From the NCBI GenBank assembly GCA_029288775.1, contig JARIGQ010000001.1, forward strand, positions 29,044 to 93,043: 64,000 nucleotides of DNA, in the 5' to 3' direction. Shown here piece by piece: positions 1,900 through 62,252 of the stretch. The position numbers were made by a program, and so were the translations under genes. The DNA comes from Candidatus Nomurabacteria bacterium. Lineage in GTDB: Bacteria; Patescibacteriota; Minisyncoccia; Phycocordibacterales; UBA5272. The first letter of the stretch is position 1. Each line of letters starts with the position of its first letter. Below the pieces are notes generated by a model. The model had not been told where the DNA came from. It saw only the letters and a program-made list of their open reading frames with translations, and made no database searches.

Positions 1900-4608
1900 A
1901 TGGATCAGACTCTAAAAACTCCTGAGGAAGAGATTGCTTATTTGCGTTCGCAAATTCAAAACAAAGTGGAAGCATCCAAAGGGTTCGAAGATCGTTTTAC
2001 CTCAGAAGATCATGCTCATGAAGTAGTTCGTGAGTATAAGCAAGTACCCCTTGAAAAAGCAGTTGCTCCGCAGCAGATGGTTACTGCCGGGGAAAAGCAG
2101 CGGCTTTTGGAATGGCTGACACCCAGAGAAACGGATGAACAGGTAAAAATGCTTGCGCAGGTTATGGCAGAAAAGGGCCTTAAAAATGCTTTTAGTATGA
2201 TGGAGTCGCTTAATTATCCGGAAGTTGAGGACGATTTCGAGCGTTACTTGGTGCAATACCTCATTTCTGGTCATGAAGTTAAAAACAATCTTTCCAAGGA
2301 AGAATGGAAGGCGCTCCATATGAAGCTTTTTGAAGTGGTATTACCCGACGTTCAGGATCAAGGAAAGGGAGCCAAGGAAATGATGGCGCTTATGGAGCAA
2401 TGGTATGCCTCTATGCAGGCACTTGCTCCAGAGCCCACCAACAAGGACAAGAATTACTATTCATTGGAACTTGCAGTGGCTAATGGTACAACCACGGCGG
2501 TTTTTTATTGTGCGGTACATATTGACTATGCTTCGCTTTTTGAAAAAGTGGTGCTTGGTATTTTCCCAACCGCTCAAGTTCGCGAGCAAAAGGAGGATTA
2601 TAATATTTTTACCAAGCACGCTATTACTACGTGTGCGTACGCCTCCGCAAGCACGCATCCAACACTCCCACTTAAAACCTATACCAACATGGAGGGGGAT
2701 CCGATGTCGCTTATTATTGCTTCTTTCACTAAGATAGCGCGGGAAAATGAAGGCCTTGCGCTCCAGCTTCTTATTCGTCCTTCGGGGGATATGTTTGCTA
2801 AGAGGTATGGAGAAATGTTGGAGGATTTGCGAAAAGGGGAGACGCTCAAGCGGGTTATTGAAAAGCAGGATAACTTGAAAGAGTCATTCCGTATTCTCGG
2901 ATCAATGTTTAGTAGTAAATCTGCTGAACAATTAGCTAAAGAAAAAGAGAAGAAACAAACGTTTGTGGACGAAACAGCAATGAAGCATGTACAGGACAAA
3001 CTTTCACGTACTATTGTAGAAACCAATATTCGTATTATTGCTTCGGCAGAAACATTACCTCGTGCACAAGCTATTCGTTCGGAACTTGAGGCTTCATTTG
3101 CCCAATTTGCAGAAGTAAATGGAAACAGCGTTAAATGGGTAGAAGTAGAAGGGCGTAAGCAGAAAGCCATGCTTCACCGTTATTCGTATCGCTTGTGGAA
3201 TGATGATGAAAGTTATCCGCTTAATATAGCCGAGCTTGCATCGCTATTTCATTTTCCAACCCAAACCAAAGATACGGCAAATGTACGCGAACAAACGGCG
3301 ACTCAAGCAGCTGCTCCATTGGACATGCCTTCAGAAGGGGTGGTATTGGGAGTAAATAGATTCCGCGGTCAAGAAACTATGATTCACATGTCGCGAGAGG
3401 ATCGGATGCGTCATTTGTATGTGATAGGGCAGACAGGTACAGGTAAGACCTCCATTTTGAAGAATCTTATTATTCAGGATATTAAAAATGGTGATGGGTG
3501 CTGTTTCATTGATCCGCACGGGTCCGATATTATGGATATTTTGGCGTCCATTCCTCCGGAGCGCTCGCAAGATGTTATATATTTTGATCCAGGGAATACC
3601 GCTCGTCCCATGGGTCTTAATATGCTCGAATATGATCGGAATTATCCTGAACAGAAAACATTCGTTGTAAATGAGCTTTTGGGTATTTTCAATAAGCTCT
3701 TCGATATGAAGACATCCGGAGGTCCAGGGTTTGAACAGTACTTTAGAAACGCAACTATGCTCGTTATGGAGCATCCGGAGTCGGGGAATACGCTTCTTGA
3801 AATTGCTCGTATCTTTTCTGATAAGGACTTTAGAGATTATAAGCTTTCGAAGACCAAGAATCCGCTCCTGCTTCAATTTTGGCAAAATGCGGAAAAGACT
3901 ACAGGAGAACAGGGGCTTCAGAACTGGACCCAGTATGTTAATTCCAAATTCGATGTCTTTCTTTCAAATGACATTATGCGTCCGATTATTGCCCAGGAGA
4001 AGAGTGCGTTTAATATCCGTGACATTATGGATGGACGCAAGATTTTCCTTGTGAATCTTTCCAAAGGACGCCTAGGAGACATCAATGCTTCACTTATCGG
4101 TCTTATTTTGGTCGGTAAGTTCTTACAAGCCGCCCTTTCTCGCGTGGACACCACGGAACGCCCTGATTTCTATCTGTATATCGACGAATTTCAAAACATT
4201 ACCACGCCATCCATTTCAGCTATTCTCTCTGAAGCACGCAAGTATCGTCTTAGTCTTAACTTGGCTCATCAATTCATCGCTCAGCTTCCTGAAGACACCA
4301 AGGGAGCGGTATTTGGCAACGTTGGTTCAATGGCATTCTTTCGTGTCGGACCTGATGATGCTCAATACTTGGAGCCGCAGCTTTCACCAACATTTACTGC
4401 AAGTGACCTTATGAAAATCCAGAATTATCATGCCTATCTTAAAGTACTGGTGAATGGTGAACCGAAAAAGCCATTTGACATTGTAACGCTTCCACCAGAA
4501 AAGGGTGATGCAACACGTATCGAGCCGCTTAAGGAATTAAGCTATCTTACCTATGGTCGACCAAAAGAAGAAGTAGAAGCTGAGATTTTGAAGAAGTATC
4601 AACTTTAA
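1900..4608 (+). CDS. TraD/VirD4 (type IV coupling protein)-like P-loop ATPase with a large uncharacterised N-terminal domain; no TM anchor
   Basis: Walker A GQTGTGKTS, DPHG, Walker B YLYIDEFQN, and an ARKYRLSLNLAHQF TraG-D_C-like motif in the C-terminal half. The N-terminal ~450 aa are soluble and unrecognised. Confidence 0.8.
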   Translation: MDQTLKTPEEEIAYLRSQIQNKVEASKGFEDRFTSEDHAHEVVREYKQVPLEKAVAPQQMVTAGEKQRLLEWLTPRETDEQVKMLAQVMAEKGLKNAFSMMESLNYPEVEDDFERYLVQYLISGHEVKNNLSKEEWKALHMKLFEVVLPDVQDQGKGAKEMMALMEQWYASMQALAPEPTNKDKNYYSLELAVANGTTTAVFYCAVHIDYASLFEKVVLGIFPTAQVREQKEDYNIFTKHAITTCAYASASTHPTLPLKTYTNMEGDPMSLIIASFTKIARENEGLALQLLIRPSGDMFAKRYGEMLEDLRKGETLKRVIEKQDNLKESFRILGSMFSSKSAEQLAKEKEKKQTFVDETAMKHVQDKLSRTIVETNIRIIASAETLPRAQAIRSELEASFAQFAEVNGNSVKWVEVEGRKQKAMLHRYSYRLWNDDESYPLNIAELASLFHFPTQTKDTANVREQTATQAAAPLDMPSEGVVLGVNRFRGQETMIHMSREDRMRHLYVIGQTGTGKTSILKNLIIQDIKNGDGCCFIDPHGSDIMDILASIPPERSQDVIYFDPGNTARPMGLNMLEYDRNYPEQKTFVVNELLGIFNKLFDMKTSGGPGFEQYFRNATMLVMEHPESGNTLLEIARIFSDKDFRDYKLSKTKNPLLLQFWQNAEKTTGEQGLQNWTQYVNSKFDVFLSNDIMRPIIAQEKSAFNIRDIMDGRKIFLVNLSKGRLGDINASLIGLILVGKFLQAALSRVDTTERPDFYLYIDEFQNITTPSISAILSEARKYRLSLNLAHQFIAQLPEDTKGAVFGNVGSMAFFRVGPDDAQYLEPQLSPTFTASDLMKIQNYHAYLKVLVNGEPKKPFDIVTLPPEKGDATRIEPLKELSYLTYGRPKEEVEAEILKKYQL

Positions 4609-4784: not shown

Positions 4785-5335
4785 ATACGTTTACACCAGA
4801 ACATCTTTTAGAAGAAGGAGAAATAATCACAGAACGTATTCGCAAGCACTGGATTGTGTATGTGCAAGCTTTCTTCTTGCATGCTTTCGGCTGCGTTATA
4901 TTTCTCATATGTGCCTATTATCTTGCTTCTAAAGGTGATTTCTCGGCCCTTCTCGGGGAAGGGTCTATATACGGTTCTATGACACTCATTACCTTTGTGC
5001 TCATTTTTTGGACAAGCTTTTTTTATGCATGGACCAAAGAATATTTTGATGTGTGGTATGTGACCACCATGCATATTATTGCCATCAATCAAAAGGAGAT
5101 TTTTACTCGCGATGAGTCGTTTATGGAACTTAATCGTATTCAGGATGTTTTCTTTGAAAAGGAGGGATTTCTCGCTCATGTACTTGGGTATGGAACCTTG
5201 CGAGTGCAGACAGCTGGAACGCTCCAAGAATTCGTAATTGAAAATGTAAAAGACGTGGAGTCTGTTGCTCATCGTCTGATGGAGATTCGAGACCATCTAC
5301 AAGAACGAAAAGATCCCATTAATCCATCTCCCTAA
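4781..5335 (+). CDS. Membrane-flanked bacterial PH domain protein (bPH_2 / YdbS-like)
   Basis: Short N-terminus, two TM helices, then a PH-like domain. The start was chosen at the ATGA overlap, not the 4667 track start, whose N-terminus is non-hydrophobic. Confidence 0.6.
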   Translation: MNTFTPEHLLEEGEIITERIRKHWIVYVQAFFLHAFGCVIFLICAYYLASKGDFSALLGEGSIYGSMTLITFVLIFWTSFFYAWTKEYFDVWYVTTMHIIAINQKEIFTRDESFMELNRIQDVFFEKEGFLAHVLGYGTLRVQTAGTLQEFVIENVKDVESVAHRLMEIRDHLQERKDPINPSP

Positions 5336-6137
5336 GCGCGAGAATATTTTCGTATTTTACTGTAGGGATGTAGTGTTCATCAATTGGAAAGCGTATATTG
5401 TTTTCATCAAAAGCGTAGAGGGAGAATTTTTGGTCTAAAAGAAAGCGAAGAATGTCATGCACAGTATAATCATAGCGTGCAAAATTTCTTGGAGCCGCTT
5501 CAAAGTATACGGCTTGCACCTTGGCAAGCATACGATGCGCTCCACGTAACGCGTGGAATTCATATCCTTCAATGTCGAGTTTAAGAAGGTTAACGTGAGA
5601 AAAATGACCAGCTAGATCATCAAGTGTGAGCATAGGAACAGTAAGTACTCCATCATCATTGATATGGTTTATATCGCTCACATATTCATCTGTTGCTTTC
5701 ATGGTGCCTGTCTTGTCACCCACTGCCACATTAAGCGCTTTTACATTAACACAGCCGTTTGCGCGCAGATTGGCCGTGAGATACCGGTAGGTGCGAGGAT
5801 GCATTTCACACGCCAGTACGTGTCCATCTTTCCCAACAAGCTTTGAGGCGGTGATAGCAAGGGTTCCCAGATGGGCGCCGCAGTCAATAACAATATCGCC
5901 AGGTTTGAGAAATGTTTCATAAAAGAGTTCGTCACTTTTATTTTTTTCCGTACGAGTCCATAACCAAAATGCCAAAGGGGCATACCACACTCGCATGCGA
6001 TACCATTTTCGACGCACCCAAAAGAGAGGGGAAAGTCCCATTCTATACAGAATATATTTAATTAGAGGAATAGGGTTACCACGAAAGAGAGCGCGTCGGG
6101 TAAATTCTTTTTCTCGAAGCGTGTGGAAAAATTTCAT
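5319..6137 (-). CDS. FkbM-family methyltransferase
   Basis: VIDCGAHLGT SAM-binding motif and LKLDIEGYE, both typical of the FkbM family. Confidence 0.8.
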   Translation of the reverse strand: MKFFHTLREKEFTRRALFRGNPIPLIKYILYRMGLSPLFWVRRKWYRMRVWYAPLAFWLWTRTEKNKSDELFYETFLKPGDIVIDCGAHLGTLAITASKLVGKDGHVLACEMHPRTYRYLTANLRANGCVNVKALNVAVGDKTGTMKATDEYVSDINHINDDGVLTVPMLTLDDLAGHFSHVNLLKLDIEGYEFHALRGAHRMLAKVQAVYFEAAPRNFARYDYTVHDILRFLLDQKFSLYAFDENNIRFPIDEHYIPTVKYENILALREMD

Positions 6138-6172: not shown

Positions 6173-6757
6173 CTAGTTCTTAAGGCGTTCTACGTATTCA
6201 CCGGTATCAGTATTTACCACAATGGTTTCACCTGCTTCGATAAAAAGCGGTGTAGCAATTTGGGCACCGGTTTCAATGGTTACGAGTTTGTTTCCTCCTG
6301 AGGAAGTATTTCCCTTAATGGAAGGAGGAGCGTCTTTGACGAAGAAGTTCATTTTGATCGGAAGTGAAATTCCAATAACACGTTCTTCGTCTTCGTATTC
6401 AAAAACTTTAATGTCAACGAGGGTGTTATCCTTAAGAAAGCGAGCTTGGTCCCCAATTACCTCTCCTGAAATTTGGAAGCGCTTAGCTCTATCTTTTGGA
6501 TCGCAGAACCAAAATTCTCCACGATTTGCATACAGGAAGAGCGCTTCACCTCGACGAATTTCTGCTTCTTCAGCGGTGTCGGAAGCATGAAATGTACCAG
6601 GAACAACTTTACCGTTCAAAAGATTTCTCATTTTTACTTGATTTTGTGGTTTTCTTTTTTGGGTCCGTGCCACATGAGATTCGAGGATTTCGAATGGTTC
6701 GCCATCCACAAGGATGAATTTTCGCGGCTTAATTTCGTCGTAATCAAGAGTTGCCAT
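6173..6757 (-). CDS. efp: Elongation factor P (divergent modification loop)
   Basis: Aligns with EF-P (GEFWF, TGEYVER C-terminus). The start was set at MATLDYDE. The track ORF is extended upstream. Confidence 0.8.
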   Translation of the reverse strand: MATLDYDEIKPRKFILVDGEPFEILESHVARTQKRKPQNQVKMRNLLNGKVVPGTFHASDTAEEAEIRRGEALFLYANRGEFWFCDPKDRAKRFQISGEVIGDQARFLKDNTLVDIKVFEYEDEERVIGISLPIKMNFFVKDAPPSIKGNTSSGGNKLVTIETGAQIATPLFIEAGETIVVNTDTGEYVERLKN

Positions 6758-6876
6758 AGTTTTTTCTATTAAAGATAATGTCGGAATTCTATCACGAAAT
6801 GAAGTAGTTTGACAAAAAGTTTCCTCAGGGGCAGACTGTTTATGTAAGTCCTTACACAGATACACAGGAGACAAAG

Positions 6877-7335
6877 ATGCAAATCCTTGGAGTGTTCGGG
6901 TTGGCTGTGTGCGTATATACCTTTTTTTACCTTCCGTGGCGAGCGCAAGAGCTCGTCCGGTTGGCCGAGAAGGGTGACAATAAAGCCCTTGTAAAGCTGA
7001 TTCTCTTGGACGCATGTCACGGGCACGGCATTCTTCTTGTCATGCGGGAAAATCGCCATCGCGTATATCGCGCTGACGGAACGATAAGGTATTGGGTAAG
7101 CAGTCCTTCTCCCGAGCTTTTGCGGCGGTATCGCAATGCTGTTCTCTATGGGGTTAGGGTATGCGAAGACTGCAAACAGGCCATGGAGCAGATGGTGGCT
7201 ACCTTGTGGTGCTGTGCTGCGGTGCGTTTTGTGGAATCGGAAATCGATGACGCAAACCAAAAAAGATGGATAGTCCAAATTCAGCAGGATCAATTCCGAC
7301 GGGTTTTGAAACAGCTGGATAGGTTATGCATCTGA
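6877..7335 (+). CDS. Hypothetical protein (152 aa)
   Basis: AGGAGA Shine-Dalgarno 6 nt upstream. Ends at a bidirectional terminator. A competing antisense ORF exists. Confidence 0.35.
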   Translation: MQILGVFGLAVCVYTFFYLPWRAQELVRLAEKGDNKALVKLILLDACHGHGILLVMRENRHRVYRADGTIRYWVSSPSPELLRRYRNAVLYGVRVCEDCKQAMEQMVATLWCCAAVRFVESEIDDANQKRWIVQIQQDQFRRVLKQLDRLCI

Positions 7336-19847: not shown

Positions 19848-19871
19848 TCATCAGAAAAACCAGGAGATCAT

Positions 19872-19905
19872 AAAAAGCAAGGGTACACCCTTGCTTTTTC
19901 CTTTC
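19872..19905 (+). terminator. Intrinsic terminator
   Basis: AAAAAGCAAGGG-taca-CCCTTGCTTTTT hairpin. Confidence 0.8.
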
Positions 19906-19960
19906 TTTTAGGCCTTTTTCTTTGGCGAAACAGGTAAAGGGGAAAAGGTGAGAAAAGTGC

Positions 19961-19989
19961 TTGACTTCAAAAGGTTCTTCTGATAAGAT
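19961..19989 (+). promoter_or_regulatory. rRNA operon promoter (TTGACT-17-TAAGAT)
   Basis: -35 TTGACT at 19961-19966, 17-nt spacer, -10 TAAGAT at 19984-19989, about 330 nt upstream of 23S. Confidence 0.55.
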
Positions 19990-20630
19990 TATGAGCACTG
20001 TTAATGATGAAGAACACGAAAATTACTAGCTAAAAACCGCAGGCAAGTGACGTTTCGTTACGCGCCCGCCGGTAAGGCGGATTTTCTTTTCTAAAAATTG
20101 TTACAGGGGAGGTTCGTTGACAATAGAATCCCGTGCACAACACGCGCAACAATACTGTTATCCAGTAGTAGTAATATTCACTGGGGTCTAGCGGAGTTTG
20201 TAGTACGGGGAACATGAAAGATAATCAATGCACAAGTAGCTTGTAAACCTGCTTGTGCAGCACGCACATAACAATGGAGCGGTCCGGAGTTATGTGGTAG
20301 TTATGTTTCCTAATAGGAACATAAGAGCATACGGTGGATGCCTAGGCTCTAACAAGCGATGAAAGACGTGATCAGGCGGCGATACGCTTCGGGGAGGTGC
20401 CTAATAACCTTCGATCCGGAGATTTCTGAATGGGGAAACCTCATACGAGTAATGTTGTATGGTCTTAGAGAGCATTCTCAAGACGCGCACCCAGGGAAGT
20501 GAAACATCTCAGTACCTGGAGGAAAAGAAAACAAAAGTTATTCTGCAAGTAGCGGCGAGCGAAAACAGAGAAGCCCAAACCAGCACACCACTTTGCTTTC
20601 AATTGATATCGTTCATGTATGTTTATAAGG

Positions 20631-20987
20631 GGAAAAAAGTTCTTTGCCCGCCTACCAAGGCGTGCACATATCCGATTCATCGGATATGGCGGGTCTCAAT
20701 TAGGGAAGCAGCCATGAGGTGAGCCTCTGTGAGACCGAATGAGATACCAGAGGTTGACGTACGCTTGTTGGTGACGTTGACCGGAGCGCCCGAAAGCGCA
20801 AGCTAACGGGAACAACGCACACGAAATCTCTCGTGTGCGTTGACAATGCCGTAAGGCTTCAAGGTGCTGACAAAAATGCCTTACGGAAGCTGGCCAGGCT
20901 GTGAACGATCGCATCGGCTTGGTTGGAAGGTGAGAGGCCGCAGGAACCCCCGCTCTTTAAAGTTTTGCCGATTATAAATCGGCTCTC
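20631..20987 (+). other. Structured insertion of about 357 nt in 23S domain I, closed by a roughly 50-bp imperfect inverted repeat (20581-20630 with 20988-21048); IVS-like
   Basis: Flanks CAGCACACCACTTTGC...ATGTATGTTTATAAGG and CCTTATAAACATACAT...GCAAAGTGGTGTGCTGG are reverse complements. No counterpart in E. coli 23S helices 9-10. Confidence 0.6.
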
Positions 20988-21251
20988 CTTATAAACATAC
21001 ATGAACGAATACGATATCAATTGAATTGAAGGCAAAGTGGTGTGCTGGGGTAGTAAGACAGAAACGTAGATTTCTAGAAGAGTTACAAAAGGTAAATATA
21101 GACTAAGTTGTTGGAAAGCAACGCCACAGAAAGTGATAGCCTTGTAGTCGAAATATTTATCTCTCTTTTGTTTCTGATCTTGAGTAGTTCGAGACACGAA
21201 TAGCTCGGATGAATCAGCCGGAACTAACCGGTAAGGCTAAATATTGTTAGA

Positions 21252-21297
<46 letters not shown>

Positions 21298-22772
21298 GGA
21301 AGGGGAGTGAAATAGAACTGAAACCGTATGTTTACAAAGAGTAGAAGAGGTATTTATACCTCGACTGCGTGCCTATTGAAGAATGAGCCAACGAGTTGTA
21401 GGTTACTGCAGGCTAAGTGGTATAAAGTCACGGAGCCATAGCGAAAGCAAGTGTTAATAGCGCGAACCAATTGTAGTAGCTTACAGACCCGAAGCCGGAT
21501 GAGCTTACCATGAGCAGGGTGAAGCAGTGCGAAAGCACTGTGGAGGCCCGAACCAGTAGGTTGTACGACTCCTTTGGATGACTTGTGGTAAGGAGTGAAA
21601 AGCTAATCGAATTCGGTAATAGCTGGTTCTCTCCGAAATAGTTTTTGGACTAGCGTCATGTGTTCCCTTTGGGGGTAGAGCACTGGAAGGTTTTGACTAG
21701 TAGAAATACGGCAACACCTATCAAACTCCGAATACCAAAGGTTAAAAACATGGCAGTAAGACCACGGGGGCGAAGCTCCGTCGGTCAAAAGGGAAACAGC
21801 CCAGATCTCAAGTTAAGGTCCCTAAGTATAGATTAAGTGTATAGCGAGGAGGTGGAGTTTCATTGACAATGAGGATGTTGGCTTAGAAGCAGCCATCATT
21901 GAAAGAAAGCGTAACAGCTCACCCATCGAGAGACTCTGCGCCGTAAATGATCGGGACTAAAATCTATCACCGAAACTGAGGGCTTCCTATTTATAGGGAG
22001 CGGTAGGAGAGTGTTCCACTCTGCGCTGAAGCGGAAGGGGTAACCCACCGTGGAGCGTGTGGAAGTACGAATGTTGGCACAAGTAACCGCAAGGAAGGTG
22101 AGATCCCTTCCCGCCGAAAGAATAAGGTTTCCTTTGCAATGATTGTCAGCGAAGGGTTAGTCGGGCCTAAGGAGATGGCAAACGCCGGATCCGATGGACA
22201 TAAGGTTAATATTCCTTAACTTGGTAGTAATGTGATGGGATGACGGGGTGTAGTATGTAAAGCGTCTTATTGGATTGACGTTTATTGTGTAAGTGGCTTG
22301 TGTAGGGAAATCCGCACGAGTATACCGCAAGCACCGTATGAAGGTGAGGGGCAACCCGAGCCAATTTTACAAAGCACGCCTCCGAGAAAAGTCTCTACAT
22401 TCTGTGAATACAGAACGTCTTCTTGTGCCTTTTACTAGGTACGAGCTTGCTTGTATCTAGATCATCTAGGTACAAGAAGATGCTTAAGTTACTATTAATC
22501 CGTACCGCAAACCGACACAGGTATTCGAGTCGAGTAGACTAAGGCGAACGAGTGATATCTCCCTAAGGAACTAGGCAAAAAAGCGATCGTAAGTTAGCGA
22601 TAAGATCTGCCCATAGCAATATGGGCCGCAGCGAAAGTTTCCCTAGCGACTGTTTACCAAAAACACAGCTTCCTGCGAACACGTAAGTGGATGTATAGGA
22701 GGTGACGCCTGACCAATGCGGGAAGGTCAAATATCGGCGGTGCTTCGGTGCTGGATGATATAAGCCCCCGTC

Positions 22773-22804
<32 letters not shown>

Positions 22805-23018
22805 TCTGATCATATCTATGATGTGGTCAGAACGGACTAGGACGGTTATAGGGAATTTGGTTTAAATAAAGTAAAAACAGTCTAATTGTGTACGCTTCAT
22901 AAAGCTACCTGTTGCATCGAAATATGCATTCAGTCCAATGTGATTAACGAGAGACCAACGTCACACATCTGACCATTAGGTTGAAGATGAAGATAGAGTC
23001 CAACTTGAGGAATAGTTG
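22805..23018 (+). other. Group-I-type intron in 23S at the E. coli U1917 site (214 nt)
   Basis: Interrupts the universal GGUCCUAAGGU|AGCGAAAUUCC. 5' exon ends in U and the insert ends in G. P7-like R/S elements GGACUAG and AAGAUAGAGUCC. P9 hairpin CAACU-tgaggaau-AGUUG before the terminal G. P1/IGS pairing was not found. Confidence 0.55.
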
Positions 23019-23588
23019 AGCGAAATTCCTTGTCTGGTAAGTTCAGACGTGCACGAATGGCGTAACGACTGGGGAACTGTCTCAGGGAGTAGCTCGGTGA
23101 AAATACAGTGGGGGTGAAGATGCCCCCTAGCTGCAGATAGACGAAAAGACCCCGTGAGCTTTACTCTAGCTTGGTATTGCAAGTGTTCAATTACTGCGTA
23201 GTGTAGTGGTGAGAGGTTGAAGGTATGATTTCGGTTGTACTGGACTCGTCGATGAAACAGCCATCTGTAATTGGGCACTTGCTAACGTGAACGGAAAAAA
23301 CGTTCGCAGACAGTATCTGGTGGGGAGTTTAACTGGGGCGGTTTCCTCCCAAAAGGTAACGGAGGAGTATATTAAGGTCATCTAGGCGCGAATGGAAACC
23401 GTGCCGATAGCGCAAGGGCATAAGATGGCTTGACTGTGAGACGGGCATGTCGAGCAGACGCGAAAGCGGGTCCTAGTGAACCTACTCTTGGCTTTAGACG
23501 CCGGAGCAGATTAACGGATAGAAGCTACCACGGGGATAACAGGCTAGTTGTGCCTAAGAGTTCATATCGACGGCACAGTTCGGCACCT

Positions 23589-23942
23589 TAACTTTAATCG
23601 GGGTGCGTCAGGAGCAATCCTGTAGCAACACATGTACAATCGTCAAATAAATAATATGTACACAAGAAATCTTGGCTTATAACGGTGAAACCCTTATGCA
23701 TGAACACCATAAGGGCAATACCGTGGGAAGTTTATATGTAAGAAAGCGATCACTCCAATTGTATTGGAGAGCTGCACACCTCAAAATGTGATTACATGTA
23801 TAACCTCGTAGAGACTTGTCACGCATGTGACGGAGTTGTGGTTCAAAGAAGATAAACCATAGCTAATACGCCAACGCCGCCTTTGATCGGGCGGATGAAG
23901 ATATAGTCCGATCCTTCCAGTAATGGAAGACAAATACGACAG
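23589..23942 (+). other. Group I intron in the 23S peptidyl-transferase region near E. coli 2500 (354 nt)
   Basis: Interrupts GGCACCU|CGAUGUCGG. IGS GGGUGC (23601-23606) pairs with exon GCACCU, with U.G at the splice site. S element AAGAUAUAGUCC is an exact consensus match. R-like AGAGACUUG. P9 hairpin CUUCCA-guaa-UGGAAG. Terminal G. Confidence 0.7.
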
Positions 23943-24088
23943 CGATGTCGGCTCATCTTATCCTGGTGGTGGAGAAGCTACCAAGGGTTTGGCTGTTCGC
24001 CAATTAAAAAGATACGTGAGCTGGGTTCAAACCGTCGTGAGACAGGTTGGTTTCCTATCTTCTGCAGCCGTTCGAATATTGAGAAGAT

Positions 24089-24119
<31 letters not shown>

Positions 24120-24474
24120 TGACCTCTGGTGTGTGGGCTCTAGCGCCAGCTGGACCGCCCAGTAGCTATGTCGGGAATGGATAACCTCTGAAAGCATCTA
24201 AGAGGGAAGCCAACTTCAAGATAAGTATTCGTTGAGGGTCGTAAGAGATGATTACGTTGATAGGATCTAAGTGTACGCACAGTAATGTGTTTAGCTGAGG
24301 ATTACTAATTACCCGAATCCTATTAGGAAACATGATTATCACAAATAATCATCGTGCATCTTTCATGTGGTGAGAGGAGGTTGAAGAGTCTGATACCAGC
24401 AATGGTCGCTTACAATTTGGCTTCCTCTCACCACGTGAAGATTTGGTTCTTTCATGTTGTGAACGATATATGAT

Positions 24475-24650
24475 GGGGATGTAGCTCAGTTGGTAGAGCG
24501 TTTCCCTGGGGGTTGGGTGTCAACGCCCGACTTGTCTCCCAGCTAGTTGCCGAGTACAAAAGGCTTAGGCAAAAGGACTGCCGCCGACGAGGTGGAGGAA
24601 GGGGGAGAGCAGGGGGAAGGTCGCAGGTTCAAATCCTGCCATCTCCACCA
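24475..24650 (+). tRNA. tRNA-like gene (probable tRNA-Pro, anticodon GGG) interrupted by a roughly 100-nt insert in the anticodon loop; CCA encoded
   Basis: Acceptor GGGGATG pairs with CATCTCC. Canonical D-arm GCTC-AGTTGGTA-GAGC. T-arm GCAGG-TTCAAAT-CCTGC. Anticodon stem TTTCC pairs with GGGAA only across about 101 nt (about 24512-24612). Confidence 0.45.
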
Positions 24651-24682: not shown

Positions 24683-24794
24683 GTTCTGGTGGTTTAACCT
24701 AAGGGTCACACCTCTTCCCATTTCGAACAGAGAAGTTAAGCCTTAACGTGGCGATGATACTGACATTGTCGGGAAAGTAGCTGCCGCCAGAACA
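24683..24794 (+). rRNA. rrf: 5S rRNA
   Basis: Helix I GTTCTGGTGG pairs with CCGCCAGAAC. Internal CCATTTCGAACAGAGAAGTTAAGCC and GTGGCGATGATACTG match 5S conserved blocks. Confidence 0.8.
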
Positions 24795-61954: not shown

Positions 61955-62252
61955 TATATGTCTTTGTCTGTAAGCCGAATTCTGTTTTTGTGTAGACATG
62001 TATCTTGTCCCGCCATTGCTGTCGAGATCTAGCGACACTCCTTAGTATTGCTAATAAGGCACGGTCTTGCACACGCGTATGTATTTAGCCGTTTCAGCCG
62101 GACTGAACCGGATCGTTTCTGTTCGCAACACGGTGGTCACCCACGACGGGCGTTACCCGCTACGTTTCCACAGTGAAGTGGTGTGTGTTCGGACTTTCCT
62201 CACCGTTTCCGGCGCGTCTACCCAACAAAGAACTTTTTTAGTATACCATATA

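Follow-up and report, generated by a model that had tools for sequence, protein, structure and literature searches.

The window, by which we mean the whole 64-kb stretch of DNA analysed here, derives from a CPR/Paceibacteria-type genome, as judged from RodA and its neighbours, whose named matches are Candidatus Paceibacterota and Nomurabacteria, and its gene content is that of ordinary housekeeping genes. It contains a single 23S rRNA gene and a 5S gene (Table 1), the former spanning 4017 nt against a model of 2925 positions. Besides the insert described below, the 23S gene carries two ORF-less insertions that match the group I intron model of Rfam with scores under its gathering score; both are kept in the relatives, with the exception of L019, which is without the insert after nt 2501. 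The window, which is one part of the genome, has no transposase, no homing endonuclease and no recognisable RNase III gene, and a regular expression for the RNase III signature had no match in the window or in the loci of the relatives.

The 23S-5S unit has no 16S gene upstream (window 19848-20310), its upstream neighbour being a gene for an MscS-like membrane protein, and this arrangement, with 23S-5S apart from 16S and the MscS-like gene upstream, is kept in the relatives. Just past the 3' end of the 23S gene lies a 22-bp hairpin (CAUGUGGUGAGAGGAGG...CCUCUCACCACGUGA; 24364-24438), possibly a processing stem, that L002 has conserved. Positions 24475-24647, located between the 23S and 5S genes, form a tRNA-like cloverleaf (Rfam tRNA, 52 bits) with an anticodon read by eye as GGG (Pro) and an insert of ~100 nt in the anticodon arm, too short for a group I intron. 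ARAGORN called neither this gene nor any tRNA between 23S and 5S in the relatives, and the interval of the cloverleaf (~24350/24457-24679) did not align with L002, L007, L008 or L018. Elsewhere in the window, the RNase P RNA (61955-62233, minus strand) has 279 nt, as compared with the 367 positions of the class A model, and its score of 103.4 bits is barely above the gathering threshold of 100 bits.

Table 1. Features of the 23S locus in the window and of helices 15 and 63 in the window and in five syntenic relatives.
Sequence	Feature	Position	Strand	Description
Window	23S rRNA gene hosting the insert	20311..24327	+	Rfam LSU_rRNA_bacteria, 2209.6 bits, full length
Window	Helix 15			467 nt
Window	5' arm of closing stem	20580..20633	+	base-paired to 20984-21048 through helices of 18, 15 and 21 bp
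Window	17-mer CACCACTTTGCTTTCAA	20586..20602	+	outer 5' arm; complement at 21026-21042
Window	Core of insert	20634..20983	+	350 nt, multi-hairpin, no ORF with homologues, no Rfam family
Window	3' arm of closing stem	20984..21048	+	two bulges, 21005-21010 (ACGAAU) and 21026-21030 (UUGAA)
Window	Helix 63, reduced hairpin	22610..22626	+	17 nt, CCCATA-GCAA-TATGGGC; relatives carry a 157-480-nt extension here
Window	23S insert after E. coli nt 1931	22804-23015		Rfam Intron_gpI (RF00028), 19.7 bits, E 0.0046
Window	23S insert after E. coli nt 2501	23579-23930		Rfam Intron_gpI (RF00028), 43.7 bits, E 4.7e-10
Window	5S gene	24685-24792		
L002	Helix 15			21 nt, CGACAGTA-GTAA-TACTGTGCG
L002	Helix 63 extension	6976-7140		165 nt
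L007	Helix 15			21 nt, same as L002
L007	Helix 63 extension	6712-7182		471 nt
L008	Helix 15			18 nt, different hairpin
L008	Helix 63 extension	2006-2167		162 nt
L018	Helix 15	5197-5345		149 nt, unrelated insert
L018	Helix 63 extension	6889-7045		157 nt
L019	Helix 15			21 nt, same as L002
L019	Helix 63 extension	4819-5298		480 nt

An inverted repeat enclosing a structured core in helix 15

In the Rfam LSU alignment, 453 nt take the place of the 6-nt loop of the H14-H16 hairpin (model positions 274-295), after the H14 sequence AGUAGCGGCGAGCGAAA, and in BLAST comparisons with the E. coli 23S rRNA position 20577 of the window corresponds to E. coli nt 270, the alignment resuming only far downstream. 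By both alignments the insertion site is helix 15 (H15) of domain I, after E. coli nt ~270; an earlier note on this DNA had the domain right but had assigned the insert to helices 9-10. Helix 15 is absent from E. coli and takes its name from the Haloarcula structure (PMC3286452), and mycobacteria have an enlarged H15, which is situated close to the L1 stalk on the solvent side and is kept in the mature ribosome (PMC5737476). As H15 faces the solvent in the 50S subunit, an insert at this site can protrude and leave the ribosome core undisturbed.

The insert, a hairpin of 467 nt in total, replaces the terminal loop of this surface helix inside the 23S gene. Its flanks read AAACC/AGCAC...GTGCT/GGGGT; the arms, the 5' one included, start exactly at the base of H15 and extend its native pairing in register, with intact 23S sequence on both sides. 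A repeat search returned three overlapping pairs of arms (20580-20604/21024-21048, 20598-20612/21011-21025 and 20609-20633/20984-21008), the only long-range inverted repeats in the window, and in the minimum free energy (MFE) fold these arms form a closing stem of 54 bp (18+15+21) with two G-U pairs. The stem is interrupted solely by two bulges on the 3' strand, both of which look like short tandem duplications of the adjoining bases. The earlier note had described this inverted repeat and its two small bulges, and both were found where it put them; folding the arms without the core, as it had suggested, yielded -81.5 kcal/mol. The complete element of 481 nt folds at -230.9 kcal/mol, compared with -142 ± 6 for shuffled sequences (z = -14.4), and there are no direct repeats within the insert.

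The core is richer in G+C (53%) than the arms (37-39%), the rest of the 23S gene (47%) and the window (44%). The earlier note had called it highly structured, at a length of 357 nt, and the folds bear out the structure with a slightly shorter interior (350 nt). Perfect stems occur at 20667-20688 (9 bp), 20813-20842 (12 bp), 20849-20886 (9 bp) and 20967-20983 (7 bp), with a G-U-rich stem of 12 bp at 20890-20926; one 12-bp helix of the core includes five G-U pairs, and several helices depend on such pairs. The sense strand reaches -145.9 kcal/mol (z = -5.6) and the antisense strand -124.6 kcal/mol (z = -4.35), and the G-U-rich helices become A-C mismatches if read on the opposite strand. Since the sense strand folds better and its helices rely on G-U pairs, the structure of the core is a property of the RNA, beyond that of a DNA palindrome.

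The insert is non-coding, with no coding signal in its sequence. Its stop-free stretches of at least 40 aa, drawn from all six frames and concatenated in order to catch spurious ORFs on homologous inserts, matched nothing at E <= 10 among 5.8 billion proteins. Rfam gave no family over 20570-21060 at E <= 10, the lone match being a meaningless one of 19 bits to a viral pseudoknot, and ORF, Rfam and phage/plasmid BLAST searches found no homology to a described family of intervening sequences (IVSs) or to an IVS-encoded S23p ORF. In the searches made we found no homologue of the insert.

The host gene carries two group I-like introns and the sequence is that of a metagenome-assembled genome, two circumstances under which a self-splicing intron, another ribozyme or an assembly artefact deserves consideration. 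Nevertheless, neither the group I intron model (RF00028) nor any ribozyme matched within 20570-21060 at E <= 10, and the insertion lies in a helix tip and not at a conserved core site. An artefact, for its part, would not make arms that prolong a native helix in register between intact 23S sequences. We consider these explanations extremely improbable.

Distribution among relatives and searches for further copies

Five syntenic rRNA loci (L002, L007, L008, L018 and L019) were recovered through their RodA proteins; the relatives closest by RodA (90-94%), among them contigs that break at the rRNA operon, were left out of this set. The 23S genes of the five are 87-96% identical to that of the window. 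According to the earlier note, finding the same sequence in relatives as a conserved expansion segment would have spoken against its readings, and all five relatives are without the 467-nt insert. Three of them (L002, L007 and L019) share an identical H15, with a 9-bp stem under a GUAA tetraloop, and a neighbour-joining tree of 1.5 kb of flanking 23S sequence placed the window as sister to L002 (p-distance 0.038, as compared with 0.057-0.113 for the others). From this tree and the identical GUAA-capped H15 we infer that the short helix is ancestral and that the 467-nt hairpin was gained on the terminal branch leading to the window.

L018 has an H15 insert of its own, made up of 9-nt repeats: CATAAAGTT occurs three times in tandem, together with complementary ACAAACTTT units. 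A copy of the native H15 hairpin (GAAGCATCACAC...GTGTGATGCTTC) stands on either side of the repeats, and the two copies can pair into a long stem.

Terminal inverted repeats, a size of ~470 bp, the lack of an ORF and absence from relatives would also suit a miniature inverted-repeat element (MITE) inserted into the 23S gene, an alternative raised in the earlier note. We therefore looked for additional copies, using exact words in the collection scans, which copies under about 90-95% identity escape. A 21-nt arm word occurs in the window at the two arms only (0 expected), a count that covers the window part of the genome. Among 185,579 GTDB species genomes, a 19-nt arm word had two matches, each to a single arm and on an unrelated contig, one in a Butyrivibrio ORF and the other on a Bathyarchaeota contig, and no two-arm copy was found. 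An 18-nt arm word gave eight single-arm matches in JGI metagenomes, none of them in rRNA, and a 22-nt core word had no match in JGI metagenome contigs. Viral contigs (IMG/VR) held two single-arm matches and none to a 30-nt core hairpin, and a degenerate 17-mer matched them singly 78 times, which is about chance level by a rough estimate. BLAST of the insert against phages and plasmids returned nothing. As a real copy would match twice, we regard the single-arm matches as chance.

At L004 5852-5879 and L016 2796-2824, a stretch of 28-29 nt resembles the inner arm but for one gap or mismatch; it falls within an 819-aa ORF of a Butyrivibrio MAG and a similar metagenome contig, with no second arm and no rRNA context. 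We treated it as chance, although it extends past the seed word for longer than expected.

The insert shares inverted termini, small size and non-coding content with MITEs. It differs from them in being single-copy in everything searched, in having no target-site duplication, its flanks being without direct repeats, and no transposase within the 64 kb, and in its arms, which begin at the base of an rRNA helix and prolong its pairing. The G-U pairs and the sense-strand bias also suggest selection on RNA and not on DNA. With no second copy, no target duplication and no transposase, the MITE reading is unsupported, and we judge it very improbable; even taken jointly, a MITE, an intron and an artefact make up an improbable set of explanations.

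Helix 63 and the origin of the closing stem

The relatives differ from the window at a second helix. All five carry an extension of helix 63 (H63), of 157-480 nt, and the helix is reduced in the window alone. The extensions have invariant blocks and an inner stem of 12-13 bp that is perfectly paired with a different sequence in each genome and capped by a conserved GAGC loop. The long forms of L007 and L019, which are not mutual closest relatives in the 23S tree, share two nested insertions that include a near-perfect stem of ~45 bp.

Within the H15 insert, the 17-mer of the outer 5' arm resembles the base of H63 in these relatives, with 16/17 positions matching in L007 and 15/17 in L019, in the same register and 5-6 nt from the base of the hairpin. 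When the insert was shuffled 2000 times with its dinucleotide composition preserved, the best match was 15 and 16/17 was never reached. The pattern common to the arm and the L007 H63 base is CACCACTTTG[C/T]TTTCAA, and the H63 pattern of the relatives, CAYCACTTTGYTTTYAA, matches the window at the two arms only. We take this similarity to be real and not due to chance; it hints at relocation of the H63 stem, at a shared cassette "handle", or at convergence on a processing or binding signal.

If the element, or at least its stem, had derived from the H63 extension and moved to helix 15, several details would fall into place. The H63 of the window keeps CCCAT...ATGGG and is without everything inward of CAC, and the H63-like sequence of the H15 arm starts exactly at this point of truncation; a single terminal branch accounts for both the H63 loss and the H15 gain. 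The native H15 stem of L018 has CATCAC, a potential microhomology, and the transfer could have used CAYCAC/GTGRTG microhomology, through recombination or template switching, or else a mobility specific to hairpins. Against this, the likeness is confined to ~17 bp, and we detected no similarity of the 350-nt core to any H63 interior or to the L018 H15 insert. An nhmmer search with an H63 profile ranked the H15 arm first in the window, at E-values of just 4-6, and an H63 covariance model, which could not span 467 nt, found generic long hairpins only and missed the insert. The same pattern would follow from convergence on a shared signal for processing or binding and, as indels are frequent at both helices in this clade, the coincidence of H63 loss and H15 gain is not very improbable. 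We hold relocation to be unlikely, and are similarly doubtful of the wider notion that helix-tip hairpins of this CPR clade are relocatable cassettes, the H63 extension or its "handle" having been re-established at H15 with a new core. Relocation concerns the origin of the element and fits either fate of the RNA.

Excision or retention of the helix 15 hairpin

In classical IVSs, an extended stem-loop with complementary termini replaces a tetraloop and is distributed sporadically among relatives (PMC4990558). RNase III cleaves their stems and leaves the fragments unligated, as described for Salmonella (H25/H45), Leptospira and Coxiella burnetii (H45) and alphaproteobacteria (H9) (PMC4990558). 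The H15 insert has the same traits: its complementary termini form a long duplex stem (54 bp with two G-U pairs and two bulges, -81.5 kcal/mol), it sits in place of a hairpin tip, and it is absent from 5/5 relatives, including the sister L002, whose flanking 23S sequence differs by 3.8%. No structural feature that defines the IVS class is lacking. Its 467 nt are comparable to the 428-444 nt of the Coxiella IVS (PMC4990558), whereas its stem is about twice as long (54 vs 28 bp), it is located at H15, and it has neither an S23p/23S_rRNA_IVP ORF nor, in the searches made, sequence similarity to any known IVS; its excision is predicted from the duplex.

The insert also fits the class of uncharacterised insertions already catalogued in CPR 23S genes by Tsurumaki et al. 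2024 (PMC11270868), which often hold ORF-less non-intron insertions suspected by these authors to be IVSs of the RNase III type. It shares with them the host group, the position on top of a stem-loop, the lack of a match to intron models and the lack of an ORF; it differs in size, most of them being < 200 bp, and in its restriction to one terminal branch. According to a statement in the same paper, citing Brown et al., CPR rRNA insertions are removed from transcripts.

Taking these comparisons together, we give about even chances to the element being an IVS-type helix-tip insertion whose excision by RNase III would fragment the 23S rRNA. On the terminal branch of this lineage the ancestral 21-nt helix 15 was replaced by the 467-nt hairpin, and the insert is transcribed within the pre-23S rRNA. 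RNase III would find an ideal substrate in the 54-bp duplex; its cuts within the stem would free the hairpin, and the ends left behind would stay unligated. The outcome would be a 5' piece of ~275 nt and a large 3' piece, presumably joined by the residual stem together with tertiary and protein contacts. The earlier note had proposed an IVS, next to a MITE, on account of this architecture, and the long stem, the replaced tetraloop tip and the sporadic distribution bear out the architectural part of that reading.

Several points speak against an IVS. Helix 15 is not among the classical sites (H9, H25 and H45), strong structure in the sense strand of the core is unneeded in an element that is discarded, and the long-stem H63 extension of the relatives looks, from its sequence, like retained functional rRNA and not like waste. 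The main rival is a retained expansion segment, under which the mature 23S rRNA would keep the 467-nt hairpin as a larger, solvent-facing helix 15 that might substitute functionally for the lost H63 extension. H15 is a known site of retained expansion in mycobacteria (PMC5737476, PMC3286452), where the same helix is exposed to solvent and is likewise missing from E. coli. The strand-specific core structure with its G-U pairs is in line with retained RNA, as are the covariation of stems and the conserved blocks in the H63 extension of the relatives, and the window alone is without the H63 extension and alone has the H15 insert, the 17-mer of the basal stem being common to both.

Nonetheless, the mycobacterial expansion amounts to tens of nt, is conserved in its group, forms a kissing loop with H16a and has been seen in the mature ribosome, whereas the present insert has 467 nt, is lineage-specific and is closed by a long perfect duplex. 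Clade-wide conservation, which an expansion segment should show, was not observed, the insert being limited among the six loci to this one terminal branch. A near-perfect duplex of 54 bp should be cleaved by any bacterial RNase III, as follows from the established enzymology of these enzymes, and the reported removal of CPR rRNA insertions from transcripts points the same way. Retention is possible, in our view, though it is less probable than excision as an IVS.

If the hairpin is excised, the 23S rRNA of this organism would be split ~275 nt from its 5' end, in a manner reminiscent of 5.8S rRNA and at a non-classical IVS site, helix 15, adding to the view that CPR rRNA genes are unusually plastic. 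If it is retained, it would be among the largest bacterial expansion segments. Such inserts skew rRNA-based annotation and the length expectations for CPR genomes. Were the cassette reading true, an expansion or intervening segment would have transposed within its gene, and its role at the ribosome surface or in processing would possibly have been transplanted with it. The swap between helices 63 and 15 is the aspect that most deserves follow-up. The H63 loss, the H15 gain and their shared basal stem provide a testable case for how helix-tip insertions in rRNA originate and move.
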